Origin: a virus
Taxonomy: Duplodnaviria; Caudoviricetes
Virus record (IMG/VR): IMGVR_UViG_3300026125_000440
Span: 1 to 38,168 of that record
Reading direction: 5' to 3' (one strand)
DNA: 38,168 bases
Part shown: positions 941 through 28,972 of the stretch, piece after piece
How the letters are laid out: every line of letters starts with the position of its first letter
How positions within the stretch are numbered: the stretch's first letter is position 1
Notes under the pieces: generated by a model
Database searches by the model: none
The model's input: the letters and a program-made list of their open reading frames with translations, nothing else
Told to the model about the DNA's origin: nothing
Translations under genes and position numbers: made by a program

Positions 941-1963
941 ATGTTAAAAAGTTTTTTCTTAAGTCGAACACACGGCGTATACGCATGGGTCACACTTGCG
1001 TGGTTACTAGGACTAGCATGGTATAATGTACAGATTCTAGTTGCTTACAACTCTTGGAACCGGGAGTTTTACGACACACTACAAACACTACAAGAGGAAA
1101 GATTCTGGGAACTATTTTGGGGATTTGACCCATTACGGTTCTGGGATTTGATAACTATGAAAGAAGGCATAGTCCCATCTTTTATTGAAATCGTTATATT
1201 GTATACTCCGCTCGCCGTGTATGTTATTTGGCAAACACAACGATTTACTTTCAAATGGCGGGAAGCAAACACTCACTACTATTTGCATCGTTGGGAAAAC
1301 TCACCTGCCACAATAGAAGGGGGCTCACAGCGTATACAAGAGGACCTAATGATGTTTGGTAAAACATTACAAAGCCTATTCAGCGGCTTCGTACAGGCGG
1401 TCCTAGTGCTGTTTGCGTTTATTCCTGTGCTATGGACATTGTCTGAAGGTTTGCCTGTATGGGGAGACAAAATCATTCCTGGTTTCTTAGTATGGGTTGC
1501 GCTTGGTATTTCGGTAGGCGGTACTATTATATCTTTCCTGATTGGCTACAAACTGCCCAAACTAGAGTATAACAACCAAGTAGTTGAAGCGAAGTTTAGG
1601 AAGAAACTTGTACATTCAGAAGATGATTTTTCACACCGTTTAACAGATGACTTGTTCCCTATGTTTGCATCAATCAAACGTAACTACTACCGTCTGTTTA
1701 ACTGGTACATGGGATTTGGTGTGTGGTCTACACTATTCGGCTTTATCGCAGGTAACGTTGCGGTTGTAGTACTCGCTCCTGCATACTTTGCTCAAATGAT
1801 TACACTTGGCGTACTGTTCCAAGTACTTAATGCGTTTAGTAAAGTAGAGTCTTCAATGACATTCTTTATTGACCGTTGGACTACAATTGTAGAGTTTCAA
1901 TCAGTCATCCGTCGTCTTCGTGAATTCAATAGGGTTCTAGATGAAGCGGAAAATGATAAATAA
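941..1963 (+). CDS. sbmA: SbmA/BacA-like inner-membrane peptide transporter (ABC-type TMD without NBD)
   Basis: MLKSFF start, NSWNREFYDTLQ, FKWREA, IEGGSQRIQED, LEYNNQVVEAKFRKKLV, NAFSKVESS and WTTIVEFQSVIRRL match SbmA/BacA motifs; several TM helices. Confidence 0.85.
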   Translation: MLKSFFLSRTHGVYAWVTLAWLLGLAWYNVQILVAYNSWNREFYDTLQTLQEERFWELFWGFDPLRFWDLITMKEGIVPSFIEIVILYTPLAVYVIWQTQRFTFKWREANTHYYLHRWENSPATIEGGSQRIQEDLMMFGKTLQSLFSGFVQAVLVLFAFIPVLWTLSEGLPVWGDKIIPGFLVWVALGISVGGTIISFLIGYKLPKLEYNNQVVEAKFRKKLVHSEDDFSHRLTDDLFPMFASIKRNYYRLFNWYMGFGVWSTLFGFIAGNVAVVVLAPAYFAQMITLGVLFQVLNAFSKVESSMTFFIDRWTTIVEFQSVIRRLREFNRVLDEAENDK

Positions 1964-1993
1964 AGTAAGTAGTTTATTGTAGAAAGGAGACAT

Positions 1994-2290
1994 ATGGCTA
2001 GACCTAAACCAACAATTTTGTTAGAACATACTAACCCCAAAGATTATCGTAGTGAACAAGTTATCAAAGCAGATGGTGTTTACGCGGTATTCTTTGCTGG
2101 GGAGCCTATAAACCTCCGCAGTTTGAATTCTCTTATTAACTTTCCAGGACCGAAATATAAGAAAACAAGTTTTTCAAATCCCGGACATGCTATTAACCTA
2201 GCAGAAAGATTAAACAAACTATTCCGTACAGACCAGTTTGAGGTATTCAAACTGACACAAGGTGAAAGAATTGAACTTGATGAAGAATGA
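1994..2290 (+). CDS. Conserved hypothetical phage protein
   Basis: AAGGAG RBS; GATAAATA box at 1955-1962; MARPKP...PGPKYKKTSFSNPGHA is a sequence type I recall from large uncultured phages. Confidence 0.75.
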   Translation: MARPKPTILLEHTNPKDYRSEQVIKADGVYAVFFAGEPINLRSLNSLINFPGPKYKKTSFSNPGHAINLAERLNKLFRTDQFEVFKLTQGERIELDEE

Positions 2291-2649
2291 AACTTACCAA
2301 AACAAATATAGTAAGGTATATCAATGAAAATTTGAGTAGTGACAGTGAACCTTTACTACTCAAAGATATATTCCATTCAGACAAAAGTAACACCTCCGGA
2401 TTTCAGTTAACCGTTATAGGTAAGAAACATATGTGTAAACTATTTGATTCTTATACTATTTCATTAACCTCCAAAAGAAAAGAGACCACTGGTAATCAAG
2501 CATTGACACTTGATAGATACACTCGTGCTCCATATCATATTTCAAGAACTAATGTATTAACCGTATTTGAGGAAGAAATCGCCAGCCAACTGTTATTGAT
2601 GGATGGCGATTTAGATGCTTGGGTCGCTAGTAAAAATTACTTCAATTAA
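2287..2649 (+). CDS. Hypothetical protein
   Basis: ATGA overlap with the upstream gene; 120-aa ORF. Confidence 0.65.
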   Translation: MKLTKTNIVRYINENLSSDSEPLLLKDIFHSDKSNTSGFQLTVIGKKHMCKLFDSYTISLTSKRKETTGNQALTLDRYTRAPYHISRTNVLTVFEEEIASQLLLMDGDLDAWVASKNYFN

Positions 2650-3185
2650 GGCAAATTAGGAACGTTAAGTTTGAATCCGCCCGGAATAGTGTATTCAACT
2701 CCTGTCACTAGATTAGTATTGGAAATCTCTAAATCTGAACCTGATCCGACAGTACCAACGGTACCTGTCCATCCTCCTCGATAATTACCATTTTCTGTTT
2801 GAATAATAGAAAACCAAGTGGCGGTGCCAGCCTGCGACACTTCTTTAGCGTCAAACCAACTAGGAAGAAATTGTATCCAGCCTGCTGGGCTCAAAGAACT
2901 ATAAACAAAGTGGGTTCCGAATTGATTACTATGGTTACGTCCCCAGGAAATTAATGCAGTAGACTGATTCTGCGGCGTTTGATTTTCCCACCCGGGTGGG
3001 TACGATGAGGTACCGAAATCCAATGGTAATCTTTGACCTGAATGAAGAGTGAAGTATGTCCAATAAGTGCTACTCGTACTCCAACTGTTGAATCTTGCAG
3101 TACTAACAGACGAACTACTGGAAAGAAAGTGACTGAAATATTGATTGTTAATTTGTGTATTACTGTGATTAAATGTTAATGCCAT
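2646..3185 (-). CDS. Putative virion structural protein (GTATWF family), paralog A
   Basis: S/T/G/W-rich; GTATWF...GTVG..GSGSDL motif shared with the neighbouring gene; AAGGAGG RBS. Confidence 0.6.
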   Translation of the reverse strand: MALTFNHSNTQINNQYFSHFLSSSSSVSTARFNSWSTSSTYWTYFTLHSGQRLPLDFGTSSYPPGWENQTPQNQSTALISWGRNHSNQFGTHFVYSSLSPAGWIQFLPSWFDAKEVSQAGTATWFSIIQTENGNYRGGWTGTVGTVGSGSDLEISNTNLVTGVEYTIPGGFKLNVPNLP

Positions 3186-3195
3186 ATTGTCCTCC

Positions 3196-3633
3196 TTATG
3201 CAGTGTAGTTCACTGAAAATTCAAAATCTGTAACAGTTATAGGCTGACCTGCGACTGCGTTCACATCGGAAACCCAAAGATCCCCAGAACCATTTTGCCC
3301 TGAAACTGTTCCGCACATAACAGCCTGGTCATTCGGAGTGACTATAGCAAACCATGTTGCTGTTCCGGTTATTGATGCGTTTTTTGTCAAGTTCGGACTT
3401 GTCTCTAGTAAAGACATATCAGGAACAAGTTGATTGAAATTTACTGCAAATTGATAGTCTGTATTCCATGTTAGTTGCATAATTTCATCAGCAGAATGGG
3501 TTGCTCTGTCTACGTACTGGTCGCCTGTCAACGGCGTACCCCTATAAATTATTATTTTGCTATTGCTAAGATTAACACTAGATTGTATTAATCCAAATAC
3601 TATCTGCGGATAACCGCGTTGTTTAATTGCCAT
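3196..3633 (-). CDS. Putative virion structural protein (GTATWF family), paralog B
   Basis: IIIYRGTP, GTATWF, GTVSGQNGSGDL; beta-rich; in a minus-strand operon downstream of a late-type box. Confidence 0.6.
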   Translation of the reverse strand: MAIKQRGYPQIVFGLIQSSVNLSNSKIIIYRGTPLTGDQYVDRATHSADEIMQLTWNTDYQFAVNFNQLVPDMSLLETSPNLTKNASITGTATWFAIVTPNDQAVMCGTVSGQNGSGDLWVSDVNAVAGQPITVTDFEFSVNYTA

Positions 3634-11947: not shown

Positions 11948-12510
11948 TGAAAGTAATCATTAGCGGTAACAACCATTCGGGATTAAGTGGCGCTCTAGGC
12001 GCCATTATTCCCAATATGACATTTTGTAGCAGAGAAACAGATTTTGAACTTACAAGTGCAAATGACCAAAGACGCTTTGCTAAACTAGCAACAGAATACG
12101 ATGTGGTTATTATTTGTTCTGCATTATGGAAATTTCAACAAACTGTATTACTGGACGAAGTACACAAAGCATGTACAGAAGCAAACGTTGCGCCACATAT
12201 TGTTTGTATCGGTAGTACCACAGATAGAGTCAACAATGGGCGTACATGGCGATACAATGCTGAGAAAAAAGCATTGCGTGATTACTCTAATACGTGCGCT
12301 ATCCAAGGTGTATGGACTGATAATAAACCGAAAGTAAGTTATATAAGTTTTGGCACGTTAAGTAACAACCAACATAAGCATCCTGATCGCAAATGTCTTG
12401 ACATAGGTCACGCCGCAGAGTATATCAAATGGTTAATAGACCAACCAAAACATATAAATATTAATGAAATTAGCATAGACCCGATGCAAGGAGACTCTTG
12501 GCATGAGTGA
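11947..12510 (+). CDS. Short, atypical SDR/Rossmann-fold oxidoreductase
   Basis: VIISGNNHSGLSG N-terminus, IVCIGS, YNAEK (YxxxK); TAATG-coupled to thyA. Confidence 0.7.
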   Translation: MKVIISGNNHSGLSGALGAIIPNMTFCSRETDFELTSANDQRRFAKLATEYDVVIICSALWKFQQTVLLDEVHKACTEANVAPHIVCIGSTTDRVNNGRTWRYNAEKKALRDYSNTCAIQGVWTDNKPKVSYISFGTLSNNQHKHPDRKCLDIGHAAEYIKWLIDQPKHININEISIDPMQGDSWHE

Positions 12511-12590
12511 TAAATACATTTAGCGAGGGGTTACAGGACGGCAATCCTAGAAACCCCTCTAACATAAGCAAACTGTTAAGGAGAATGCAA
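12509..12590 (+). promoter_or_regulatory. Late-type box plus structured leader of the GIY-YIG gene
   Basis: GATAAATA 12509-12516; gaggggtt (12525-12532) pairs with aacccctc (12552-12559), inner agga/tcct stem; AAGGAG 12578-12583. Confidence 0.7.
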
Positions 12591-13163
12591 ATGTCTAAAT
12601 GTATTTATATTGTATATAAAACCATAAATCTTGTCAATAGCAAATTTTACATAGGAAAACACAAACAAGAATCACATGATTTCGATGGTTACTTGGGTAG
12701 CGGAAATTTAATCAACGAAGCGATAGAAAAATACGGAAGGGAAAACTTCATAAGAGAAACATTATCTGTACACGAAGACGAATATGAATGTTATCTCGCC
12801 GAAGAAAAAGCAATAGGCGATTTATGGAAATATCGTAATGATTGTTATAACTTAGCACCTGGCGGAGACTGCGGAATGGGTGAAACAAAGCAACTATGGT
12901 GGGATGAAAATTTTAAAAAGAAAGAGGAGTTGAGTATTGCTTGGAAAGAAAATAACCCGTCAAAAACACCCGAGGGTAGACGCAGAATAAAAGAATCCAA
13001 TAAAAGAAGAATTTGGACTGAAGAAGCAAAAGAGAAATGTGGAGGCCCACATAGAGGTAAACCAAAAACTAAAAAGGTATGTCCATATTGCGACAGGCCA
13101 ATAGCCATAAATATGTACGAAAGATATCACAACAAAAATTGTAAGGAGTATTATGGAAAATAA
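12591..13163 (+). mobile_element. Free-standing Seg-like GIY-YIG homing endonuclease gene
   Basis: IYIVYKTINLVNSKFYIGKH, YLGSG, KYGRENF, YNLAPGG; basic C-terminus with CPYC..H..C; ATG 12591 has an RBS. Confidence 0.88.
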
Positions 13164-14574
13164 AAAAAGAGAATGGTCATCATATGACTTTACTAAAATC
13201 CCGTATGATGATTTGGTGCGTGTAGGCCAACGAACGATGTTATATAGAGATATGTTCACGGTCAGTTGGCTTCTTGCCAGATTCTGTAACTACAAATGTT
13301 CGTAAATACATTGCGACCTCATATAGCAATATATGTTGAATAACTCCTTTAATTGCTGGGAACTCCCTCAGGGACAATCAGCAGCCAAGCCCGAAAGGGA
13401 AGGTTCAACGACTAGGCGAAAGCCGTACACTCAAGCGAGTGGAAATGGGGAGCATCCTACTGGGATGAAGATATAGTCTGAACTACATGGCAACATGTAG
13501 CAGTTCATAAGAGAACGGATCAAGGAGTAGCGCACTTGATTGAACATATTTGATTGTTGGCCATATGCCCGCAGTGACCGTAAGGACCATAGACCCACAG
13601 AACTATGTTTGAGGACAATAGATGAAATTAAAAAACAAGCGCGTGCCCGCGGATTTAATAGTTTCCATTTCAGTCTTAGTGGTGGTGAGCCTACTTTTCA
13701 TCCTGGATATTTGGATATCATGGAGCACTTGGCTCTTGATGTAGACAATACAAATTATACGTCGGTACACATGACAACTAATATGTCCCGCAATATGAAA
13801 TGGCATGAAACATACGTGAAACATGCTTCTAAATTTCATAGGGCAAGTATTACGGCGAGTTTACATACTGAACATGTAAACACTCGTGAAAAGATGCAGG
13901 ATTTTGCTGACAAACTTATATTTTGTCAAGAACATGATGTACAAGTAACAATCAATCAGGTTATGGTACCCGAATGGTTTGAACGTGATTGGGATAATGC
14001 TATGTTCTTCCATGAACAAGGCATAAACGTCACTCTTAAGCCACAGAGCGACCCTACAGCGAGTTTTGTTGTAGACGGGTATACACCCGAAATGTTAGAA
14101 AGACTTCACAATGGTATGCCTCAGTTAGCATACACTGAAGAAAAAGCAAACAAGGCAAAGTTAGTTACTCGTCCCGAACCTACATTCACTAAAACAAGTG
14201 ATCCTATATGGTGGGATGAATTTGCCGACATACCAAAATCGTATCAAGTAGAGTTCCGCGATAGTGAAGGTAAGTATTGGTGGATGGATCAAGCGGAACG
14301 TTTTAATGCATTCAACTTTAACAAGTTTAATGGATGGGAGTGTAGCAGTGGATACAGAAGTATTATTATTCGCGAGCCTGATGGTTCTGTTAAGCGTAGT
14401 TATTCTTGTGAGGACCAGCCTCTGGGTAACATTGAAACAGGCTTTCAACTATTCGATGAGCCAAAAGTATGTATCAGCAAAAATTGCGTTAGTAGCGCAG
14501 ACAGTAAGATACCGAAACGAGCGCCGGGAACAAAATTGCCACTCTGGCCCGGTGACGAAACCTTTAAAAGATAA
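13153..14574 (+). CDS. Intron-split radical SAM protein: join(13153..13303,13553..14574), 390 aa
   Basis: Exon 1 MENKKREWSSYDF...RFCNYKCS(T) with AAGGAG RBS; joining T13303 to AT13553-13554 gives CNYKCSYCWP; exon 2 has SGGEP, TTN and C-terminal Cys-rich C..C..C..C. Confidence 0.92.
13304..13552 (+). ncRNA. Group I self-splicing intron (IA2-like), 249 nt, no ORF
   Basis: 5' exon ends in U paired to G in P1 (UCGU|AA...UUGCGA); P AATTGCTGGGAA 13351-13362; Q AATCAGCAG 13376-13384; R GTTCAACGACTA 13403-13414; S AAGATATAGTCT 13468-13479; P7.1/P7.2, P8, P9 hairpins; terminal G13552. Confidence 0.95.
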
Positions 14575-17301: not shown

Positions 17302-17795
17302 ACGAGTTTATGACTCACATACATTTTGATTATAACAAGGAAGCGTTATTGAAAGAATTTGATAACGCTAACCTTTCCGTTTATACACCTAGTAGAAAGA
17401 TTAACGAACAATCATGGTTCAATAAAACTGACACTTGGTTAACTGCGGTTGCCGATGAACAATCATCTGAAATGTATAGAATAAAATGTATGTTAGAAGA
17501 CACATTCAATGAACCGGTGACAGCAAAATTCTTTCTATTAAAAGAAAATGAACATATACCTCCGCATAAAGATATGGGTCATAGAGTATGTATAAACATA
17601 GTATTATCCAACGATGCTGCCCCAGTGAAATTTAAAGATGGACCAGAAGAATCTTACGAGTGTGCAATGTTAAATGTTTTTAAACGACACGAAGTACTAC
17701 CCGGACCAGAAAGAAAAATGGTGAAGTTTCAAATAGGCGAGAACCTATTCTATAGAGACGCACTACAAATATGGGAAAACGGTACTAATGTATGA
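17298..17795 (+). CDS. Fe(II)/2OG oxygenase-like (cupin) protein
   Basis: IPPHKD...CINIVL...LNVFKRHEV....RKMVKF. Confidence 0.65.
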   Translation: MNEFMTHIHFDYNKEALLKEFDNANLSVYTPSRKINEQSWFNKTDTWLTAVADEQSSEMYRIKCMLEDTFNEPVTAKFFLLKENEHIPPHKDMGHRVCINIVLSNDAAPVKFKDGPEESYECAMLNVFKRHEVLPGPERKMVKFQIGENLFYRDALQIWENGTNV

Positions 17796-19239
17796 TATAC
17801 TACTTATTGCTATCCCAATAGGACGTACTGATACACGTCCTTTGCCTGCCATATTCCATCTAAAGTCATATCTTGAACTTCACGGTAAAACTGTAAAGTG
17901 CATCGAATGCCACAACCTAACAGATGGCGGAAACCCAGAGTTATTTGATAGGATGTATGAAGCAATCGAACCAGAAAAGGATAATGCCCCGTGGATTGGT
18001 ATATCGTTGCTCACTGACTACCAGGTGTCATTGGGCCTAGAAGTAGTCAGACGTTTAAATTTAGACCCAAATCGTATTATATGGGGTGGCCCCGGCACAT
18101 CACTTATTAACGAAAAATTACAACGCAAAGAGATAGATGCGGTTGATAACTTCAAGCATGTAATCTATGGTGAGGGCGAAATTGCCCTACTTGAATTTTT
18201 AAATGGTAATCTAGAGTATCCGGGCATCAATAGTGACCCTGTACAAATAGATGATTTGAATTCGTTACCTCCACCAGATTACGGTGATATCAATGTACCA
18301 ATGATTGCGTTAACTGGTTCTCGTGGTTGTGTGCGCAAATGTAAATTCTGTAATGTGCCATCTATATGGAAAAAGTATAGATATGTTGATGGTACAATTT
18401 TAGCAGAAAATGCTATTTCAGTAATACAAAAGAATCCGTATACTTCACACATAGCGTTCTCAGATTCGCTTATCAATGGTTCAGAACGTGAATTCCGTAA
18501 GATGTGTACTAGATTGAAAGAGCATAACTTATCCGAAGATGTAAAGTCAGGTAAACTTTCTCCTGTCACATGGGAAGCCCAATATATAGCACGTAGAGTA
18601 ACGGTAGACCATTATCAATTAGTAGTTGACTCAGGTTGTACTATGTTGAAAATAGGCATAGAATCTGGCTCAGAAAGATTACGTAATGAAATGGCAAAGA
18701 AATTCAATGACGAAGCAATGTATAATACATTGTTTGGATTTCTAAAAACTGACCCTCATATCAAACTAGTTCTTATGATAGTAGTAGGTTATCCGCAAGA
18801 AACAGAAGAAGATTTTGAAAAAACACTTGACTTCATGGACAGACTTAGTTACTATAACACTAGAATTAAAATGTCCCCTACCCTTATGTCCATCATACCG
18901 GGGACTCCTGTAGCAACGGAACATCCAGAGTTAATAGAAAATATAGAGTCGCACAACTTCAAAGACTACACGTTTGTAAATGAAAATGGAGATATAAGAA
19001 GTCGCGTAAAACGTCTCATAAAAATGGAAACTATGATTAAATATCATAAATACTGTTACGATATATCCATCGCAACACGCAAGGATTATTTCTTGTTTGA
19101 TGTACTCAAAGAGTTAGATGTTGATTACATGGATATATACAAAGAAGCAATTGACGATTTGATATCTTCCGGACGTTTACCAGATGATATCGAAGATATT
19201 TATGAGAATGAACTACCGTGGCCTGAGTTTCTATGGTAG
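17788..19239 (+). CDS. Cobalamin-binding radical SAM enzyme (class B methyltransferase-like)
   Basis: N-terminal B12-like domain (IGIS, IIWGG, GEGE); SRGCVRKCKFC; FSDSLING; IGIESGS; IVVGYPQETEEDF. Confidence 0.9.
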   Translation: MYDILLIAIPIGRTDTRPLPAIFHLKSYLELHGKTVKCIECHNLTDGGNPELFDRMYEAIEPEKDNAPWIGISLLTDYQVSLGLEVVRRLNLDPNRIIWGGPGTSLINEKLQRKEIDAVDNFKHVIYGEGEIALLEFLNGNLEYPGINSDPVQIDDLNSLPPPDYGDINVPMIALTGSRGCVRKCKFCNVPSIWKKYRYVDGTILAENAISVIQKNPYTSHIAFSDSLINGSEREFRKMCTRLKEHNLSEDVKSGKLSPVTWEAQYIARRVTVDHYQLVVDSGCTMLKIGIESGSERLRNEMAKKFNDEAMYNTLFGFLKTDPHIKLVLMIVVGYPQETEEDFEKTLDFMDRLSYYNTRIKMSPTLMSIIPGTPVATEHPELIENIESHNFKDYTFVNENGDIRSRVKRLIKMETMIKYHKYCYDISIATRKDYFLFDVLKELDVDYMDIYKEAIDDLISSGRLPDDIEDIYENELPWPEFLW

Positions 19240-19258
19240 TCAAAGGAGACAAACATAT

Positions 19259-19573
19259 ATGTATATACAACAACTTAGATTTACACGCGCAGACGTATCA
19301 TCATTAGGAATCGATGGTACGATAGAGGCTATCAATGCCGCGGCAAACCCAGAAATGCAAATACAATATCAGGCAATATTAGAAAGACACCTTGATGAAA
19401 ATCTTTATGTTTCACACACTATACAAAACAACACGTATATTGTAACTAGACACTGGAATTCCCAAGAAGAGTGTGAGTCATTTTTTGCGGCGTTGGGCAC
19501 TGTCGGACAAAGGTTGCGCCAAAGCATTGAAGGGACAGGATTCAAACTTGAGCAATTCTTCACTACCGTATAA
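19259..19573 (+). CDS. Small hypothetical protein
   Basis: AAGGAG 19243-19248 then ATG 19259 (MYIQQLRF...). Confidence 0.65.
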   Translation: MYIQQLRFTRADVSSLGIDGTIEAINAAANPEMQIQYQAILERHLDENLYVSHTIQNNTYIVTRHWNSQEECESFFAALGTVGQRLRQSIEGTGFKLEQFFTTV

Positions 19574-20045
19574 GTACTTTAAAGATAACAATATTCAAAT
19601 TTTCAGTTATCCTTTTGACCGAGAATTATTGCTATCTGAAATGAATAGGTTCCAGTCAGAATTTGAACCATACACAGACCATACAGGCGCGTTCATAGAA
19701 GATTGGACTATTGCTAGACACATAGAATTCGATTATGCAACAGAATTGTGTAAAAGGTTTGATATCGATGCAAAACCCAGATTTTACATTCAAAAACCTG
19801 GGTTCACCCTTCCTATGCATATAGACCGAGGAACACAATGTAGTATAAATGTTCTACTGTATTATAAGAATCCAGCACCGGTTAATATCGAAGACAAAAC
19901 ATACTACTATGATGCGTGTTTACTAAACACAACTAAACTACACGGTGTTACCACTGGTGATGAAGAAAGAATACTTTTCAAACTAAGTATATTCAACGAA
20001 GATTACGAATCCGTAGCAAGAAAAATAGTTAAATGTATTTTTTAA
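19548..20045 (+). CDS. Fe(II)/2OG oxygenase-like (cupin) protein, paralog of 17298-17795
   Basis: PRFY..PGFTLPMHID...CSINVL...LNTTKLHGV....RILFKL; probable TTG start at 19548 after AGGA. Confidence 0.7.
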   Translation: MSNSSLPYKYFKDNNIQIFSYPFDRELLLSEMNRFQSEFEPYTDHTGAFIEDWTIARHIEFDYATELCKRFDIDAKPRFYIQKPGFTLPMHIDRGTQCSINVLLYYKNPAPVNIEDKTYYYDACLLNTTKLHGVTTGDEERILFKLSIFNEDYESVARKIVKCIF

Positions 20046-21135
20046 GTTCTTTGACTAACTCGCTGTCCTTTTGTTTTGACAACACATCTATATAGTTTAC
20101 AGTTTTAGATTGGTCTGCTGGACTATTAACTATCTTTATCATATTTTCAAGCCATTTGATAGTATCGTCTAGGTTTACTATGTTCGCATCCGTATCTCTA
20201 ACCATGTCCATAGATTTGTACAAATCACTATCATCATTTGCGTACTTCAATGCATTGTATGATTCATCCATAACAAAGTTACCAGTAATAATTATAGGTT
20301 TCTTTGTCACTTCGAATATATATTTGAGATAACCTGAAAATTGTTTTACGCTGTATACACTTAATGTAGGACACAATATAATTTTTTGAACTTTGGGATG
20401 GATCGCATAGTACTCATAATTCTCTTTAAACGTTTCCCATCGTAATCCCCATCGTACAAGTTCTGCTAGTTTTCCAGTTGCTTCGTTGCTTATTGTCATA
20501 TAACATACCCATTTTTCCGGTAAATTATCAAGCAATGAATAAAACTTGTCTCTTCTATTGCCTTCAGTATTACAGTTTGTAATGATAGAAATAGTAATTT
20601 TGTAGTCTTTCAACTCTGCTATTAGATATTCCATAAACTTATAGAAATTAGGAGAATACGAAAGTTCGCCGCCCATAAACTTTAATGTGAATCTATCACT
20701 ATGGATGCTCTTAATCCACATTACAATCTTCTTATACTCTTCATCGGTAGAATTGTATATGATTTGCTCAGTGTTAAGTTCCTTTGCTATTCTATGGGAT
20801 TGAGCAGGGTAACAATATACACAACTCATATCACAAAAATTATCAAATTTCAATTCCAATAACCAAGGGCGTTCTTGGATATCGTCAACTGAATCCCAGT
20901 CATTAACTACATCTCTATATGAGGTGCCTGTGTGGTCGTATGAATTGTAGCAATGTTCACAATGGTCATAGTTTCTTACACCATTCTTGAGGTCATCACG
21001 GACCTTATCAATATAAGGATTCGAGTATATCTCGTTCTCGCTGAAAACTGTTCCAGGGCCAGATTTACAACAATATCTTAACTTGTTTTCAGATAAGTCA
21101 ATGTTGACTTCTTCCCAGGCTCTACTACATATCAT
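20029..21135 (-). CDS. Radical SAM protein with N-terminal twitch-like domain
   Basis: CSRAW..YCC..CEHC, then CDMSCVYC, MGGE, ITN. Confidence 0.88.
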   Translation of the reverse strand: MICSRAWEEVNIDLSENKLRYCCKSGPGTVFSENEIYSNPYIDKVRDDLKNGVRNYDHCEHCYNSYDHTGTSYRDVVNDWDSVDDIQERPWLLELKFDNFCDMSCVYCYPAQSHRIAKELNTEQIIYNSTDEEYKKIVMWIKSIHSDRFTLKFMGGELSYSPNFYKFMEYLIAELKDYKITISIITNCNTEGNRRDKFYSLLDNLPEKWVCYMTISNEATGKLAELVRWGLRWETFKENYEYYAIHPKVQKIILCPTLSVYSVKQFSGYLKYIFEVTKKPIIITGNFVMDESYNALKYANDDSDLYKSMDMVRDTDANIVNLDDTIKWLENMIKIVNSPADQSKTVNYIDVLSKQKDSELVKELKKYI

Positions 21136-21826
21136 CTTTTATAACCATAGACTTAAGTATATCATAAGATTGTGGCGAAACAGATATGAAGAACGTAAAC
21201 ACATCGTCTTCAAATGCTTCAGGATAGTGTAATTTACTGGTGTCCACTAAGTAAAGCCTGCCTGGCTCTATCTTTCTGTTTGTATGTGTGGTACCATCCA
21301 AGAACGTAAACAAGTAACCGTCAGGTTTGTTAGTTCCCCACAGTCTAATGTTCTCAAAAGGTGCAAATTGGTCTATATGTGGGTAGAAAAAAGATCCGGT
21401 ATTAAACCATATAATAGCAGACCTTTGCATATATGGTTTTAGCGGCTCTAGTGGATCAAAACATGACCAATTTAACGCCGGTGTATGTACTGTATAGTCA
21501 GGATCGAATGAAGATACGTTATGTCTGCGATTCCACACATCTAATGGTCCTACACACGCATCCCATTCATCCGGGTCCATTCGTCCGTCGGCATTGACCA
21601 AAGCAATACCCTTACGGAACATATGTGGATGTTTGTCTTTTGGTCCCCAATGTTTGAAGAGATGTTCGTTACCAAACATCTGCTGTTCAAACAATTCCAC
21701 ATCTAATTTTATATCTAACGGTACAAAATTTTCTGTAACAAGTTCGTTATATTTTTCTAAACTAACACTTTCTGCCATCTTACGGTTAGGCATCGCCATA
21801 TGCATTGGCTTAGGGTCTAAATTCAT
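21125..21826 (-). CDS. Fe(II)/2OG oxygenase-like protein
   Basis: GSFFYPHID...IRLW...GRLYLVDTSKLH. Confidence 0.65.
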   Translation of the reverse strand: MNLDPKPMHMAMPNRKMAESVSLEKYNELVTENFVPLDIKLDVELFEQQMFGNEHLFKHWGPKDKHPHMFRKGIALVNADGRMDPDEWDACVGPLDVWNRRHNVSSFDPDYTVHTPALNWSCFDPLEPLKPYMQRSAIIWFNTGSFFYPHIDQFAPFENIRLWGTNKPDGYLFTFLDGTTHTNRKIEPGRLYLVDTSKLHYPEAFEDDVFTFFISVSPQSYDILKSMVIKDDM

Positions 21827-21858
21827 TTACTTTTCCTTTTAGTTAAGTTATAGTAAAT

Positions 21859-22473
21859 TTATTTATGATATGTAACGTCTATGTTTTCCTTCTTGATACT
21901 GTAAAATACTTTGTCGTGGTCAGCATGGTGTACACGACGGTTTAGTTCAGAATCCTTGTAACCTACACCCATCATTAGTAGTACATCCTGTTCTGTACCT
22001 AGCAATTCTTTGATTTCATCCGAAGAAAAACATTGACAACAGCCAGTGCTGTAACCTAGCATAGTTGCCGTTAGGTTTAGATAACCAGAAGCAATACCCA
22101 ACGCAATGTTTGAATCTCGCTGAATAATTTCTACACTATGTTGTTCGTCTAGAGCATTCTTTTCTGCTATACGGTTACTCACTTCAGGTTTTGCTAGAAA
22201 TACAAACAAAGTATTTGCTAACACTTGACTGTTTGTAATAAGTTCACCGTTTAGTCTGAAACCTGTGGTTTTTTCGTGTAACTTTACAATCAACTCTCGA
22301 TTTTGAATGACTTTAACATCATAGAAAGCGCCATTTTGCTTACTAGGACATTGTGTTATCGCGTGAACCATCAATTCTAGGTCGTCTTCATTAATTTGCT
22401 TTGACAAATCCCAGTTACGCTGACAGTGTTGGCTCTTAATTACACTTTTTTGTATATTGGTCTTTAGTTCCAT
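21859..22473 (-). CDS. Nitroreductase-family flavoprotein
   Basis: QHCQRNWDLSKQI, CPSKQN, LGIASGYLNLTATMLGYSTGCC, MMGVGY; AAGGAGG RBS before ATG 22473. Confidence 0.8.
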   Translation of the reverse strand: MELKTNIQKSVIKSQHCQRNWDLSKQINEDDLELMVHAITQCPSKQNGAFYDVKVIQNRELIVKLHEKTTGFRLNGELITNSQVLANTLFVFLAKPEVSNRIAEKNALDEQHSVEIIQRDSNIALGIASGYLNLTATMLGYSTGCCQCFSSDEIKELLGTEQDVLLMMGVGYKDSELNRRVHHADHDKVFYSIKKENIDVTYHK

Positions 22474-22517
22474 TTGTTCCTCCTTAACCCTATTCAATAG
22501 GGCATCATTAGTATATG

Positions 22518-22540
22518 TATTTATACTTTTATGCTAAATA
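22518..22540. promoter_or_regulatory. Divergent late-type boxes
   Basis: TATAAATA on - strand (22518-22525) and GCTAAATA on + strand (22533-22540). Confidence 0.6.
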
Positions 22541-22561
22541 TGTAATGTAAGGAGAACAAAA

Positions 22562-23128
22562 ATGAAATACTTTCAACCAATAGTTGATTTACCGCAATTA
22601 AATCTACAAGCAGAAATGAATGAAATGTTATCCGAAGGTCTACTAGACTGGGGAGAATTCAATCAAATATGTATTAATTCAGTGCCAGGACACACAGACG
22701 ATTACAACTACGGGAGCAACAGTTTACATTATGATTGGGCTAAAATGACCGAAGTCAACGGTGAAATGATAGTTCCAGAACGAGAACATAAACTATCTGA
22801 GGGTGACTTCACAGAGTTATGCGATGTATTTGCCGGCACCGATTTCGAAACAATACACAACTTACTTGCGGGCCGATATATTTTAGGCAGAACCCGTCTA
22901 ATGCGTTCTCTTCCCAAAACATGTTTAACATGGCATAAGGATACTACATTACGACTACATCTTCCGCTAAAAACACAAGAAGGATGTTATATGGTAATTG
23001 AAGATGAAATATTACATCTAGCAGAAAATCGTTGGTGGCAGACTAATACAACAAAACTACACACCGCATTCAATGGAAGTAAAGAAGAACGTATCCACTT
23101 AGTCGCAGTAATTCTAGGCGAACGTTAA
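22562..23128 (+). CDS. Fe(II)/2OG oxygenase, Asp/Asn beta-hydroxylase-like
   Basis: GRTRLM..PKTCLTWHKD..RLHLPLKT...HTAFNGS..RIHLV. Confidence 0.82.
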   Translation: MKYFQPIVDLPQLNLQAEMNEMLSEGLLDWGEFNQICINSVPGHTDDYNYGSNSLHYDWAKMTEVNGEMIVPEREHKLSEGDFTELCDVFAGTDFETIHNLLAGRYILGRTRLMRSLPKTCLTWHKDTTLRLHLPLKTQEGCYMVIEDEILHLAENRWWQTNTTKLHTAFNGSKEERIHLVAVILGER

Positions 23129-24643
23129 TTACTCACTCCAAAATCTAGGGCCATCTGGGTTGTTCAAACGTTCTTCTGTAATCTCTATTGTACGTTGTGT
23201 TGTCGGTGAAGGTTTATAATGTGGGTCATGCATCTGTACTCGTGCGATAGATTCTTTCCAACGGCGTAAACGTGTAGCCATATCATTGTCTCTAAATTTC
23301 CAGTCCATAGCAGTATGATGCTCAAACGCATGTGGGTCCTCACCTTTTAGTATATCATACAAATCATGTTGTTCATTCAACAACAACGAATTACCAAACG
23401 TCCATCGCCACAATGGGTTGCCATTATCATCTTTTGCGTTTCCATAACCCAACTCGTATACTTTATCTATACCGCGCAAATTTTCTTGATGGTCTTCTTC
23501 CGTTTCAGTTGCGTAACCAATCAATATCAAACACTGCATATGAATCTTGTACTTGTTCAACATTTCAAATGTGTACCACACGTCTTCGTTGGTAAACTTT
23601 TTCTTCATGTGCCAGCGTACACTTTCACTAAAACTTTCTAATCCCATTACAGCATCTTCGCAACCGCTTTCTGACATAAGACGGTACACCCGTTCAGGCA
23701 TCTGGTTCTTCGGTCTGAATATCAAATGTGACATCCAACGGAATGGTTTATTCTTTGCGTTCTGCGCTTGCTTTATACGCTTCATTTCAATTAACAGTTT
23801 TTCATATATAGGCGGACTGCCATTCAACAAACTATCAGTAAAGTGTATGGTTTCTCTGTCATACTTAGTAACAAGTTCTTCTATTTGTTCTGCTACTTTC
23901 TCCGGACTTTTAAATCTATATGTGGGCCATATTTGATGGTCGTTACAGAATGTACACTGTCTTACACAACCGCGACTAGCAGACACAAAACATGTCTTAG
24001 GCGCCCACAGTTCATCGTACTCATTCCACTTAATATCGCTGTAATCTGGCGCCAAAGAATCGTCCAGAGGCGTTATTTCATCTATAGAGTGTATCTTGTT
24101 GATGCCAGGAAATGATGTATTACCTTTCAACAGTTCAAGTATTGCTCGTTCGCCGTCACCTTTAATAAAGAAATCTAATATACCTTCACGTACATAATGC
24201 GTTATTCCCTCATGTTGTATATTAGTTCCTCCCCATACAGTTTTAATATGAGGCAAGTATTGCTTAACAAGTGAAGTAATCTTTATGGCAGCCGCGGCAG
24301 AGAACGGTGATAGCAAACTAAATCCTAACCATGTGGGATTCTTGTCTTCTATCATACGTACCCATTTATGAAATATTTCTTTGTTGTCTTGATAAAATTG
24401 TTCCATTTCATCATTCAATGGAGAGCCCAAGTTATTACTAAACTTCATTGCTCCTTCACCATTGAAATAATGATACTCGTGTTCGCCGCGACTTTTCAAC
24501 TCATTATACAAATCTATATTGATATCGTACACTTCTGCCGCATATCCACTGGCCTCCAAATGTGCTTTAATAACCCCAGCACCAGCCGTCGGTGCGGCAG
24601 GTTCAACCATAGGCATGACTAATACAAGCATATCTAATGACAT
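23129..24643 (-). CDS. Cobalamin-binding radical SAM enzyme (class B methyltransferase-like)
   Basis: LGFS, VWGG, GDGE; SRGCVRQCTFC; FTDSLLNG; GLESFSE; IGYATETEED. Confidence 0.9.
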   Translation of the reverse strand: MSLDMLVLVMPMVEPAAPTAGAGVIKAHLEASGYAAEVYDINIDLYNELKSRGEHEYHYFNGEGAMKFSNNLGSPLNDEMEQFYQDNKEIFHKWVRMIEDKNPTWLGFSLLSPFSAAAAIKITSLVKQYLPHIKTVWGGTNIQHEGITHYVREGILDFFIKGDGERAILELLKGNTSFPGINKIHSIDEITPLDDSLAPDYSDIKWNEYDELWAPKTCFVSASRGCVRQCTFCNDHQIWPTYRFKSPEKVAEQIEELVTKYDRETIHFTDSLLNGSPPIYEKLLIEMKRIKQAQNAKNKPFRWMSHLIFRPKNQMPERVYRLMSESGCEDAVMGLESFSESVRWHMKKKFTNEDVWYTFEMLNKYKIHMQCLILIGYATETEEDHQENLRGIDKVYELGYGNAKDDNGNPLWRWTFGNSLLLNEQHDLYDILKGEDPHAFEHHTAMDWKFRDNDMATRLRRWKESIARVQMHDPHYKPSPTTQRTIEITEERLNNPDGPRFWSE

Positions 24644-25779
24644 TATGTTTTAAACTCTACCTTAACGTTTTGTTCTGCTTCGCGTTTCACCACGCCGCAA
24701 GTTCGCACACAACGGTGCATAACATTATCACCCGACCACGAATCAACTAAGTCTTTAGCAAAAAATGGGTGTGCTAGAATTTCATCCCAATCTTTATCAC
24801 GCAAGTTCAATTCTCCCTTAGGATAAGGCAATTCCTTGGATGATAGCGTTTTAAAGTTTTCGTACTCATCACTAATGTAACAACATGGGTAAACTTCCAT
24901 ACGACTATTTACATACAGTTTCTTATACCCTCGGTAGATACAATCTATATTGTAGTTTTCTGTTGGCAATGGTTTGTCTTCATATTTGTACCAATCACGC
25001 TTTGGTGGTTTACGAGTCTGTAGCCATTCCACCGTAATGTTATCTTCATCTACATCATTCATGTTGTACATTTTCTTTGCCATCTTGCCCATCTCTTTTA
25101 GGTTGGGATGACGCAAATCTTCACGCTCAGGGGGTTCTAGGAAGTGCGTGATGGCATCCCCAGTTTTGTTTAGTACTGGGAATCGTTTCCTAAAAATGTC
25201 GAATCTCGCTGTTCTACGGAGTCTGAAATCGTCTACTCCCATTTCGTTTGCTAATTCTTGACACTTTTCATACTCATGTTCGTTATGTTTGAATGCGAGA
25301 AAATCCCATCGTACATTAACAGGTGACTCACAGCAAATACGCATATGACTGAGTATTTTATCAATCTCTGTATTTTGTCTATACAAGTGATTTGTTTCTA
25401 TGCCGTCAACGCCAAAGGTCATTCGGTCTTTACGGTCTAGTATTCCAACAAGTCTACGCCACCAATCATCACTACGTAAACTACCGTTAGTGAACATTTC
25501 AATGTTGGCGCCCATGTCTTTAACCGCTTTGATTGCTTCAAATACATTCTTTGATGCTAGTGGGTCACCATGCGTTCCGCAAAAATACACAAAACGCAAA
25601 TTAGGTAGGCGTTCTTTATTAAATACTCGTTTTATTTCATCTATAGTCCAATCACTAATGCCTTGGTCTAATCGCAGTTCACCACCAAAAACATTTCGGG
25701 CACACATAGGACATGCGGCATTACAAGCGTTGGTTATTTCTACATGTAACTCTCGTACATTTTCTAATTCTAAAAACAT
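24643..25779 (-). CDS. Radical SAM protein with C-terminal twitch/SPASM-like domain
   Basis: CNAACPMC, FCGTHGDP, TNGS, VDG...NHLYR; C..PCC..CVRTC; GATAAATA (-) at 25805-25812. Confidence 0.9.
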   Translation of the reverse strand: MFLELENVRELHVEITNACNAACPMCARNVFGGELRLDQGISDWTIDEIKRVFNKERLPNLRFVYFCGTHGDPLASKNVFEAIKAVKDMGANIEMFTNGSLRSDDWWRRLVGILDRKDRMTFGVDGIETNHLYRQNTEIDKILSHMRICCESPVNVRWDFLAFKHNEHEYEKCQELANEMGVDDFRLRRTARFDIFRKRFPVLNKTGDAITHFLEPPEREDLRHPNLKEMGKMAKKMYNMNDVDEDNITVEWLQTRKPPKRDWYKYEDKPLPTENYNIDCIYRGYKKLYVNSRMEVYPCCYISDEYENFKTLSSKELPYPKGELNLRDKDWDEILAHPFFAKDLVDSWSGDNVMHRCVRTCGVVKREAEQNVKVEFKT

Positions 25780-25807
25780 AATTTCTCCATAGTATTATGT
25801 AAAATAT

Positions 25808-26764
25808 TTATCGTGGAACCCACTTGGTATTCCGCCACTCAGTAGTACAAATACAATCTCCTACGGAGCATACTACTGTTGGTTGTATCTCTGGCAATTC
25901 ATCTTCGTAAAAGTTAAACGTTGTGGTGCTGTCTTCTGTAAATGAGTTACGACAATTCATAAATGCCATACCGCGGTTATCTATCTGTAAATGCTCTATA
26001 GCAGAATTACAACGATAACCCGTAAAATTGCCCTTCATTAAGGCTCTGGCGTTTTCATCAAAATTTACATCACTTTCTGCCTCAGTAGAAAATGTAGTTT
26101 CATAACTACCAGCAATGATAGGGTCTAAATGTATATCACTAATATACTTAGGTAATGCACTGTAATCAAATGAATTGTTTTCCCAATTAAAATGGTCTAC
26201 TTGTATATTTTGATGTTGCGACCTTAACTCTCGTTCAACAAAACTATTCAATACTTCTATACTTTCATTAACATATTTAGGGTCTATTGCGACATTAAAT
26301 TGGTAAGGAATCTTATTCTCTTTGAGATATTCGCCCAACGTATACAAATGTTCTAAGTTTGCGAACTTGTAATGGACGCTAATATACAGCATAGAAAAGT
26401 ATCGTGCGTTCTCTTCCCACCAACGCATTGTACGACTGCCATTAGTAACCATTACATTGTGTCCGCCCAAAGAATCTATAAATCTAATGTATTCATGTAA
26501 GTGTTGGAACATACTAGGTTCACCGCCACTGTAACTTACTTTTATTGTCTTTACATTGGGTTTATGTTTTTGTACAAACTCTAAGTACTTGACTACATTA
26601 TTTTTAAATGTATCGTTGATAGGCGGTACATATCGTGTCCCAGCATTTGCTCCGGGCCAGCAATACCAGCACTTGTAATTACAATAATCAGATACCATAA
26701 TATCTAATGATGCCGTTTCAGTGTGGTTAGTTATAGAAGTTATTTTATGGTTGTTATATAACAT
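25808..26764 (-). CDS. Radical SAM protein, paralog of the intron-split gene
   Basis: CNYKCWYCWP, SGGEP, TNGSR, ISVH, C-terminal C..C..C..CIC; start 26764 TAATG-coupled to the upstream gene. Confidence 0.88.
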   Translation of the reverse strand: MLYNNHKITSITNHTETASLDIMVSDYCNYKCWYCWPGANAGTRYVPPINDTFKNNVVKYLEFVQKHKPNVKTIKVSYSGGEPSMFQHLHEYIRFIDSLGGHNVMVTNGSRTMRWWEENARYFSMLYISVHYKFANLEHLYTLGEYLKENKIPYQFNVAIDPKYVNESIEVLNSFVERELRSQHQNIQVDHFNWENNSFDYSALPKYISDIHLDPIIAGSYETTFSTEAESDVNFDENARALMKGNFTGYRCNSAIEHLQIDNRGMAFMNCRNSFTEDSTTTFNFYEDELPEIQPTVVCSVGDCICTTEWRNTKWVPR

Positions 26765-27402
26765 TACACGTAACGTCCGAAACCCCAGTATCTTTCGGCA
26801 CAAAACCAACACTCTTCACAATGCTTACTAAAGTCGGTTGTCGGGAATTCTTCACAACTTCTGGTTAATGGAAATATATCTTCTAGTACGCCCAAAGTTT
26901 CGTATAATTCACAAATGCCTTTTTTGTTTATATTCTTAAACGGCATAAATGCCATACCATATTGTGTTGGCATGTTCTCGCCTTCACGTCCGTCTGGACC
27001 GTCGCAAATAGTATCTAGTTCTTCTTGCGGCGGATTCTTTGTTTCGCCCACAAAAACATATTGAAACGCATTCTTACTCTTAAGGTCTAGTGCGAATTCT
27101 AGTTGTTCTTGTGTATAGTTATTACTGTCTACTGTATTAACATATCTATTACCCCAAGTGATACCTGTCATATCAGCAACCTTTGCTAGTATTCTATCAG
27201 CAAATTCTTGTTGGTATGGCTTTAGACTTGATATACTTGTTATCGCATGTATGTTAATATCGGGTCTGTAATCTCGTTTATACAATGCTAGAATATATGT
27301 GAGTATAGCAGAATCGGCGCCGCCAGATATCTTTATAGCAATATCAGTGACGCTTTCATCTAAATCAATAACTACATCTTGTTGGCTGTTTTTAACTATC
27401 AT
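26764..27402 (-). CDS. QueC-like PP-loop ATPase
   Basis: ISGGADS; TRSC...HCEECWFCAER zinc motif. Confidence 0.75.
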   Translation of the reverse strand: MIVKNSQQDVVIDLDESVTDIAIKISGGADSAILTYILALYKRDYRPDINIHAITSISSLKPYQQEFADRILAKVADMTGITWGNRYVNTVDSNNYTQEQLEFALDLKSKNAFQYVFVGETKNPPQEELDTICDGPDGREGENMPTQYGMAFMPFKNINKKGICELYETLGVLEDIFPLTRSCEEFPTTDFSKHCEECWFCAERYWGFGRYV

Positions 27403-28814
27403 TCTAACCCCTTAAATATATCTGCCATTTCTGGGAATGTTTCATAAAAACTAGTCCCACGATGCGCATCAATTGCTTCTAAGTATTCTTTCATTTCTGG
27501 CAATCGTGTTTCATGCCAGTCTTCACTCTTCATAAACGAAATCATACCACGTAATCGGCTAATACCATAACTGGCTTTTTCCCAATCTTCGTATGTTACT
27601 TTTCCTCTATGCCATGATGGCACACCCAATTCCCAATTCTCTTTCCACCATGGGATAAACTCTTCGTACTTCTGTGCACACTTTTCTTTAAACTCTGGTG
27701 GTAGTGTTTTAACATTAAGTTGTGGTGGCCAGTAGACAAAGTGGTAATTTACCCCGCCAGCGCCGAACGGCCACATGTTAATCTTCTTAAATCCCTGCTC
27801 CAGTTTCCATTTAACAAAATCTGGAATGTAGTATATGTTGAGTGCGTTTACGGCACAGGCAATGGTTACTTCTACATTGTCAGGTGTTTGCGTGTCTAGT
27901 ATATGAAATACTTCTTCTGTTCTGCTCCACTTACTTGGGTAACGAATGTATTCATTCATTTCATGTATGCTATCTACGGAGTAATGGAATCGCACAAGTT
28001 TAAAGTGTGACCACAATTCAAACAAATCTTCACGCCATTCTACACCATTAGAGTTGTAGCGTATTTCCATATCCTTTGCGTAACCTTGACGTATACATTC
28101 TTCTAAGATGTCGTAATGTTCATCAATGATAAGTGGTTCACCACCAGCAAAGTACAGTTGCTTCATGTACGGAACTTGCTGATAAAACTGTTCCCAAAAT
28201 ACTGGATTGTTCTTGTGCCAGTTGTATGATGAGCCGTTAGTAGAACCTTTATTATCCCACGACCATGTGCCGCGCAGTGATTCGTTCTTTAGCGTAGGAT
28301 AGACAGCCTGCCAATCTTTTACCCATCCTGAACTATCATGTGGCGAACACATCACACATGCTAGTTGACATTTGGTACCGAAACGCAAATCGATGTATGC
28401 GACTTGCGGTGGTACTTCACCGTCTTCTGTAGTATCTGCGAGTAACTGGTCTAAGTCTACACGTTGACTCCAATACTTTGTTTCCCACATACGTTTACTA
28501 TTGTGACCTGCGGCTTCTTCAGTGTAACACTTACGACAACTTGGCGGTTGTTCACCGTTAAGCATTTGTTTACGGACGTTCTTCATGTAAGAACTATTCC
28601 AACTACTTTGGAAGTCACTTACATTAAGATTGTTTGGTTTACCTTCATCGTCTTTTAGTACGCCAACATTGCCCCCACCTATCTTATCGTTGGTGGGACC
28701 TACTGAACTTGCGTTTGCGGTACAGCAAACCCTGAGTTGCCCATCGGGTCTAGTACTAAGATGCATCCAAGGCAATATACAAAATGTATCGCTGGGTGGT
28801 TTTTTATCTGACAT
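27399..28814 (-). CDS. Radical SAM protein with N-terminal twitch domain
   Basis: FCILPW..VCC..CRKC; DLRFGTKCQLACVMC; FAGGEP; YNSN. Confidence 0.92.
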   Translation of the reverse strand: MSDKKPPSDTFCILPWMHLSTRPDGQLRVCCTANASSVGPTNDKIGGGNVGVLKDDEGKPNNLNVSDFQSSWNSSYMKNVRKQMLNGEQPPSCRKCYTEEAAGHNSKRMWETKYWSQRVDLDQLLADTTEDGEVPPQVAYIDLRFGTKCQLACVMCSPHDSSGWVKDWQAVYPTLKNESLRGTWSWDNKGSTNGSSYNWHKNNPVFWEQFYQQVPYMKQLYFAGGEPLIIDEHYDILEECIRQGYAKDMEIRYNSNGVEWREDLFELWSHFKLVRFHYSVDSIHEMNEYIRYPSKWSRTEEVFHILDTQTPDNVEVTIACAVNALNIYYIPDFVKWKLEQGFKKINMWPFGAGGVNYHFVYWPPQLNVKTLPPEFKEKCAQKYEEFIPWWKENWELGVPSWHRGKVTYEDWEKASYGISRLRGMISFMKSEDWHETRLPEMKEYLEAIDAHRGTSFYETFPEMADIFKGLE

Positions 28815-28847
28815 AAGTTCCTTTTCGCTTATAGGTTATATACTATA

Positions 28848-28927
28848 AGTATAGCATAAAGTTGTATTTAGAGTCAAATAGTTATTGATTTACTATACAC
28901 AACCATGTTATACTGTATGTATAAATA
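28848..28927. promoter_or_regulatory. Divergent promoter region
   Basis: Minus strand: TTGACT (28877-28872)-N18-TATACT (28853-28848). Plus strand: TTGATT (28885-28890)-N18-TATACT (28909-28914) and TATAAATA (28920-28927). Confidence 0.65.
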
Positions 28928-28972
28928 TAAATTGCTACAATTACGAATTTATTTAGCACTTAGGGAGCAAAT

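Follow-up and report, generated by a model that had tools for sequence, protein, structure and literature searches.

The window analysed here, a 38-kb virus record from IMG/VR (IMGVR_UViG_3300026125_000440; 38,168 nucleotides (nt), taken whole), carries a gene for a GIY-YIG endonuclease directly upstream of a radical SAM gene that is interrupted by a group I intron, and comparison with related loci gives good support to the view that the endonuclease and the intron form a mobile pair. We put at about 55% the probability that the two spread together and that the donor allele is protected in two layers, with the intron contributing. The endonuclease quite probably targets the radical SAM gene near the intron, and its cut likely falls in the codons for W-L-L-G-R, just before those for the cysteines of the CxxxCxxC motif. 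A first-pass annotation had proposed the endonuclease and the adjacent intron as a candidate pair for collaborative homing, aimed at the DNA encoding CxxxCxxC. The pairing is borne out by the adjacency and co-occurrence of enzyme and intron (3/3) and by the polyphyly of the intron alleles, but one lineage (locus L086) has the intron only, and the sequence signature of the target lies ahead of the motif, where the W-L-L-G-R codons stand 17-34 nt before the intron.

Probable mobility of the endonuclease and the intron

The intron (13304..13552, + strand, 249 nt) matched the full Rfam model RF00028 (Intron_gpI) with 100.9 bits (E 3.3e-25), and its bounds were fixed by comparison with intronless orthologous loci (33/33). 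It splits the Tyr codon of the CNYKCSYC motif in the radical SAM gene between the first and second bases. Exon 1 of this gene (13153..13303, + strand) is 54-82% identical to the N-termini of 33 intronless orthologues, and exon 2 (13553..14574, + strand) matched Pfam Radical_SAM (E 3e-6) and its orthologues at 44-81%; with the intron removed, the two form a stop-free open reading frame (ORF) of 390 residues that contains CNYKCSYC. The intron structure is group IA-like and runs from P1 to P9.2, including P7.1 and P7.2, with a U.G pair at the 5' splice site in P1, a guide GCGA at 13313-13316 and a terminal G. Three full copies (window, L080 and L086) were 76-79% identical, and a structure drawn by hand over them had 98.4% of 189 cells paired, against 34-44% when slid, with two-sided changes at 21 of 63 pairs, figures that favour the structure because it was drawn from the same three sequences on which it was scored. 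The P3, P4, P6, P7 and P8 helices were 100% paired in all three copies, and P7.1 and P7.2, the extra hairpins between P7 and P3 that define group IA, both covaried; we presume the finer label to be T4-like IA2. From these features we infer that the intron is self-splicing. Its earlier description as lacking an ORF is right as regards a nuclease ORF, but it does contain a 47-codon ORF on the + strand, and the frame of exon 2 is open from 13540 onwards.

The endonuclease gene (12591..13163, + strand) encodes a Seg-type protein of 190 amino acids (aa) (PHROG 314, E 8e-35) with a catalytic domain (about residues 1-95), a helical linker and a C-terminal putative zinc finger, CxxC-x12-H-x3-C. The protein matched T4 SegA (38% over 68 aa, E 3e-12); residues Y9, Y20, G22, E71 and N87, among them the catalytic Tyr, Glu and Asn, are invariant with SegA, SegG and I-TevI, and the alignment has a gap, shared with SegA, where the segment with the motif-B Arg would be. 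Its top Foldseek match was the catalytic domain of I-TevI, a weak one (E 0.05, with none at E <= 0.001), while Pfam and TIGR01453 matches fell under the curated cut-offs and a PDB sequence search gave one chance-level match only. An alignment of C164/C167 with the I-TevI zinc finger was only apparent, as pairwise BLAST gave it no backing. The start is most likely ATG at 12591, preceded by AAGGAG at 12578-12583; a GTG at 12507 was ruled out by the lengths of the relatives (180-189 aa) and by the ribosome-binding site. Five 90% clusters align over the whole endonuclease (54-100% identity) and together form one 50% cluster, in which C164, C167, H180 and C184 are invariant (5/5), and catalytic and zinc-finger residues are intact among family members at 53-67% identity. 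Exact-peptide scans reached only distant GIY-YIG proteins, and alignment of the C-terminal half was needed to find these relatives.

In all three family members with readable context (window, L080 and L085), the endonuclease gene directly precedes the same gene with an intron at the same base. L080 and L085 were retrieved by the C-terminal half of the endonuclease alone, and the L085 contig ends inside the intron; three further weak viral matches to this half were unrelated GIY-YIG proteins without the radical SAM gene. No family member was found beside an intronless allele among the alleles examined, 116 of 153 of which had at least 1 kb of upstream sequence, so that the occurrence of the enzyme independently of the intron, which the earlier reader had named as grounds for doubt, was not seen in the three readable family loci. 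Among 175 loci with the exon-1 motif, a GIY-YIG gene lay near the radical SAM gene in L080, L084, L085 and L140, plus L001 at 5 kb; L084, an 86-kb metagenome contig, carries an identical copy of the window's locus and was left out as an independent case. Scanning the whole collection for a stop at the Tyr codon yielded six contigs, one of them L080 and five of the L086-lineage phage. For scale, IMG/VR holds roughly 390 stretches of the radical SAM gene, a figure obtained with a different pattern and estimated from 20 of 64 parts, and 120 loci were fetched.

The endonuclease is an optional gene with empty alleles in relatives, as expected of a homing endonuclease, and intronless alleles coexist in the same sequencing runs as intron-bearing ones. 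Upstream neighbours vary, with an SDR gene adjacent in the window and L085 and about ten small ORFs in L080, and the radical SAM gene is constant. On an exon-2 protein tree of 113 rows, the three intron alleles that have exon 2 sit among different intronless relatives, and a single clade for them was rejected on an exon-2 tree of 22 rows (approximately unbiased (AU) test, p 9e-6), a result to be discounted in so far as the 22 rows were picked from the 113 as nearest neighbours after the first tree. This polyphyly indicates that the intron-bearing alleles arose by horizontal spread. Repeated gain of the intron fits the tree better than one gain followed by many precise losses, which are possible with three changes.

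Predicted target and protection of the donor

The predicted cleavage region (13270..13287, + strand) spans positions -34 to -17 counted from the intron; within it, an otherwise invariant Gly codon has become GCC (13276-13278). This codon, at -28..-26, is that of the Gly in W-L-L-G-R. All distinct intronless alleles (142/142) have the Gly, but the window has Ala and L085 has Cys; it is retained in L080 and L086. One allele among the first 33 loci (L025/L026, from a more distant set) has Ser in its place, so the residue is not absolutely fixed. The difference in Gly changes between endonuclease-bearing and intronless alleles gave a Fisher probability of 2.9e-4, to be multiplied about tenfold for the post-hoc choice of codon. 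Of six stretches scored, -34..-17 was the only one in which the window, L085 and L086 fell at the 1st-2nd percentile; in -16..-1 three alleles stood at the 3rd-4th percentile, partly owing to the Ser codon at the splice site. Across the four intron alleles, with up to 40 codons aligned, amino-acid departures at columns conserved to at least 90% were confined to W-L-L-G. L085 and L086, which have identical intron starts (102 nt) and are 98% identical in distal exon 1, differ at 8 of 232 positions, seven of them between -47 and -17.

We also asked how the paralogous genes of the window compare with this target. The dozen paralogous motifs counted by the earlier reader are there, as 12 CxxxCxxC motifs in 11 other radical SAM genes. 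The closest of them, CNYKCWYC (26645..26701, - strand, in a gene at 25808-26812), keeps 22 of 30 near-invariant target positions and has TC for GG at -28/-27 and A at -24. On a target profile, which measures conservation of the target and not specificity of the enzyme, this motif scored -20 and orthologues at least 62; the combination of G-28, G-27 and G-24 is absent from all 12 motifs, each of which scores -20 or lower. The closest paralogue is accordingly predicted to escape cutting, and the escape of the paralogues, which had been thought noteworthy, is unsurprising given their divergence. The neighbouring genes thyA and SDR, raised earlier as alternative targets, show no signs of being one: thyA is absent from the 12-kb L080 locus, and the adjacency of SDR and the radical SAM gene is common in endonuclease-free alleles (the SDR residues were judged by inspection only).

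As regards self-protection, L080, which combines the intron with an unaltered Gly codon and an intact enzyme, fits protection by the intron alone, and the changed Gly codons of the window and L085 suggest another layer of protection, or the only one.

Restart of the radical SAM gene

The last base of the endonuclease ORF is 13163, which gives an 11-nt overlap with the radical SAM gene starting at 13153; the intron begins 140 nt further on, just as the first-pass annotation had described. That annotation called the endonuclease free-standing, which is too simple: the gene sits inside the 5' end of the radical SAM gene and not between genes, with the old start upstream and a replacement start behind it. 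The relic of the original start survives at 12503..12523 (+ strand) as M-S-D-K, with a stop after six codons, and overlaps the SDR stop codon. The four codons of this stub also begin the orthologue in L002, L003 and L032, and a 338-nt contig in run X3 (~90% alike) reads from the stub codons in frame into exon 1 without an endonuclease. This contig skips exactly the intron length; both flanks align, and the last 59 nt of exon 1 do not. GATAAAT is common to the empty X3 allele and the left edge of the cassette, and likely served as microhomology, either for insertion or for a later deletion of the stub.

Stubs upstream of the nuclease measure four codons in the window, 24 in L140, 41 in L080 and about 44 in L085, so that a native stub together with a carried replacement, the hallmark of endonucleases that replace gene ends, is found at all four loci. 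The L080 stub ends in the Gly codon. In L085 the stub and the replacement start of the same gene share 92% identity across 99 nt, and the 3' part of the stub resembles the allele of L080, a mixed resemblance that demonstrates exchange and not stub function; the stub may be a working homology arm or a mere scar. Among 153 intact alleles an upstream stub was present in one, L140, which flanks a GIY-YIG gene (recognised with an N-terminus profile), in a scan that had at least 1 kb upstream for 116 of the 153 distinct alleles and would miss stubs of 4-5 codons. The L140 locus (1541-3568) comprises an unrelated 262-aa GIY-YIG protein with NUMOD3, a 24-codon stub, TATAAATA and an intronless, divergent W-I-V-G allele, and no close relative was found in IMG/VR. 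In L086 a relic at 2773-2870 consists of a sigma-70-like promoter, M-T-E-D-L, nuclease-like codons and a second start, before the intron-bearing allele. M-T-E-D-L is the commonest start of the radical SAM gene (20/114 alleles), a 15-mer of the L086 type stood upstream of none of 92 intact alleles, and a few of the codons resemble the C-terminus of the L140 nuclease (by eye only). We consider this relic likely to be a deleted endonuclease cassette.

Duplicated gene ends also occur at other free-standing GIY-YIG genes. A survey of 87 GIY-YIG loci flagged 24 for similarity between upstream and downstream sequence, of which four were inspected and three kept: L334 (2941-3810), with a 12-codon copy of the start of the next gene; L310 (1650-2510), with a degenerate copy of the next gene's start around the GIY-YIG gene; and L266 (2710-4020), where the 3' end of a convergent gene is duplicated around it. 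Most of the flagged loci were tRNA pairs, repeated ORF entries or weak matches.

The left edge of the cassette carries ATAAATA (12510..12516, + strand), the consensus of T4-type late promoters. It was found at the left junction of all four nuclease loci (window, L080, L085 and L140), and of its 19 other copies in the window, 11 precede a same-strand gene by no more than 65 nt, against 35/262 for permuted heptamers; it is likely the late promoter of the cassette. ATAAATA also occurs at 13107-13113, in the 3' end of the endonuclease gene and 46 nt before the replacement start; inspection by eye showed no copy at the corresponding place in L080 or L085. The 5' untranslated region (UTR) of the endonuclease in the window (12510..12608, + strand) is predicted to form a 14-bp stem (12510-12523/12595-12608, covering codons 2-6) and a hairpin (12525-12559), with a z-score of -4.7 (0/200 shuffles). 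The stem likely blocks translation from read-through transcripts and leaves late ones free, as RNA structure does for T4 nucleases (PMC2988022). The fold was not significant in L080 (z -1.3), L085 (-1.8) or L140 (+0.6), and a conserved inhibitory hairpin is therefore unsupported outside the window. An identical 10-mer occurs in the 5' UTR (12511-12520) and the P1 loop of the intron (13303-13312), a marginal match (36/2000 shuffles). Pairing between the copy in the intron and the start of the endonuclease gene is also conceivable, and we set the match aside as a special feature, since pairing with the coding start accounts for it.

These observations can be assembled, tentatively and with some doubt on our part, into a three-part homing unit: a GIY-YIG endonuclease that restarts its own target gene, a stub that acts as a built-in homology arm and would allow spread regardless of gene order, and, in tow, an ORF-less intron seated in the radical SAM cluster motif, with the otherwise invariant Gly next to this motif twice forced to change. 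The loci would then be snapshots of a life cycle (enzyme and intron; intron and enzyme relic; rival enzyme without intron), and the gene-end duplications at three unrelated GIY-YIG loci would suggest a general strategy in uncultured T4-like jumbo phages.

Mechanism, alternatives and related systems

Under the reading that we prefer, the endonuclease would be expressed late from the ATAAATA promoter during co-infection and would cut uninterrupted alleles in related phages at the W-L-L-G-R codons. Its binding would extend towards or across the intron site in the geometry of I-TevI, an enzyme that binds across its intron site and cleaves 23 and 25 nt upstream of it (PMC2988022). The donor would be protected by two layers, the intron and the codon changes at the cut region. 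Repair on the left-hand side would proceed with the stub serving as homology arm or through microhomology, which in the window would be GATAAAT, and later deletion of the endonuclease would produce intron-only alleles.

Several observations weigh against this reading. Two of the five family clusters (P0004 and P0005) have no visible context, there are four intron lineages only, and two of these (L085 and L086) have a recent intron in common. In the L086 lineage the intron occurs without any family member (in a 251-kb record estimated to be 71% complete), and in L140 the place of the endonuclease is taken by an unrelated GIY-YIG, with no intron present. L080 keeps the Gly codon and reaches just the 15-16th percentile in -34..-17, and the L085 stub extends to -17, about 9 nt past the Gly codon and unlike a broken end at -25, so stub ends map the cut poorly. 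The endonuclease has no counterpart of the C-terminal helix and helix-turn-helix (HTH) module of I-TevI, since the protein ends at residue 190, and its pairwise similarity to I-TevI is nil outside the catalytic domain; given the missing module, its footprint may fall short of the intron site.

That last point bears on the best of the alternatives, homing in trans, in which the enzyme would cut in exon 1 upstream of the intron at a site that does not span the intron position, codon changes alone would protect the donor, and the intron would be co-converted. Besides the short protein without an HTH, this is favoured by the Gly change in two of the three endonuclease-bearing alleles in spite of the intron, by the L140 GIY-YIG, which holds the site beside an intronless, divergent W-I-V-G allele, and by the precedent of T4 MobE and the nrdB intron (PMC2790892). 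The combination of intact enzyme, Gly codon and intron in L080 argues against it, as does the presence of the intron in all three family loci although it is rare among alleles, and we regard homing in trans as possible but rather unlikely. Less probable still is strict collaborative homing, the version put forward in the first-pass annotation, in which cleavage would fall in the CxxxCxxC codons, no more than a few bases from the intron site, and the donor would owe its protection solely to the intron. The L085 stub that runs to the first Cys, the perfect co-occurrence with the intron and the precedent of F-CphI (PMC6083498) speak for it; however, the intron alleles are ordinary at -16..-1 and +1..+18, apart from the splice-site Ser codon, with -34..-17 as the outlier, and the Gly-codon changes would be left unexplained. 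We likewise think it improbable that the enzyme has another target or is a passenger, linked to the intron only by shared history or block transfer by other elements, since the changes are focused at one codon, the catalytic and zinc-finger residues are intact and the radical SAM gene stays constant while upstream neighbours differ, even though the lineages are few, L086 has the intron without the enzyme and a GIY-YIG of the L140 type (in L140 itself and as the relic before the L086 allele) could be the real mobiliser.

The source of the window is likely an uncultured jumbo phage of the T4 superfamily, since three of four related records searched have a T4-type major capsid gene and the single complete record among them is 382 kb. 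Three freshwater runs contain the window and may be where it came from. The run thyA-SDR-GIY-YIG-radical SAM gene lies in an island of 12 radical SAM genes; the other 11 are found at 17788-37461 together with two QueC-like genes, oxygenases and a nitroreductase, and a gene for an SbmA/BacA-family peptide transporter lies at 941-1963 (Pfam E 4e-76). The radical SAM gene that the intron interrupts was absent, in any form, from all cultured phages searched (50,697 records), and no specific NCBIfam family matched its protein above the cut-off. Orthologues occur in GTDB genomes (L099-L130, 32 loci), mostly of Bdellovibrionales, none of the 32 being an interrupted allele. Elsewhere in phage genes, L077 (1568-2611) and L072/L076 have several related group I introns within ~1 kb. 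Two short proteins (P0103 and P0104) match exon 1 through C-S-Y and continue into unrelated sequence, and may represent further insertions, or else stubs that stop at the intron site; short exon-1-like proteins, which mostly resemble frameshifted or contig-end calls, were left uncounted.

Collaborative homing is known from F-CphI with the psbA intron of S-PM2, a T7-like phage and the ICP1 terminase (PMC6083498, PMC10448857, PMC3984707). Here, in contrast, the enzyme is a GIY-YIG endonuclease and not of the EndoVII type, the host gene encodes a radical SAM enzyme, the endonuclease lies inside the start of its target with that start duplicated, and the signature is upstream of the intron site. 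T4 MobE resembles the present case in that its gene lies just upstream of the likely target, protection is by sequence change and the nrdB intron is co-converted, but it is an HNH nickase encoded between genes with a site far from the intron (PMC2790892), whereas here the predicted site is ~25 nt away and the start is duplicated. The SegA-type catalytic domain, late-promoter motif and predicted inhibitory RNA structure recall T4 SegA, SegG and I-TevI; according to PMC2988022, however, Seg genes lie between genes and their sites are distant, and the C-terminal half of the present family is peculiar to it and terminates in a CxxC-H-C finger. Fungal mitochondrial mORFs (Allomyces atp6; Glomus atp6, atp9, cox2 and nad3) likewise carry a replacement piece and leave a native stub on the far side, but they replace the 3' end of the gene (PMC3630166), and here it is the 5' end in a phage, with an ORF-less intron. 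The T4 MobA/gene 60 bypass cassette is similar in combining a gene-internal endonuclease with a protective recoding element, in the later loss of the endonuclease while the element stays and in the use of the site by other nuclease families, but MobA splits the protein in two and relies on ribosomal bypass (bioRxiv 10.1101/2022.08.31.505936), whereas the present cassette restarts its gene in one piece and has a group I intron for a partner. Our literature search, which did not extend to supplements and so does not establish absence, found no group I intron in a radical SAM motif and no phage endonuclease that duplicates a gene start.

Collaborative homing rests on a handful of cases, the origin of such pairs has been called unclear (PMC10448857), and this locus would add one with a GIY-YIG enzyme. 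Its natural variants separate the routes of protection, with the intron only in L080 and the intron plus a Gly change in the window and L085. The locus also indicates that an endonuclease described as free-standing can sit within a gene and leave it unbroken by restarting it, an arrangement that would ease the known problem that free-standing endonuclease genes lie far from their cut sites. The radical SAM enzyme, shared with Bdellovibrionales genomes, appears to have sufficient conservation for an intron and two nucleases to parasitise it.

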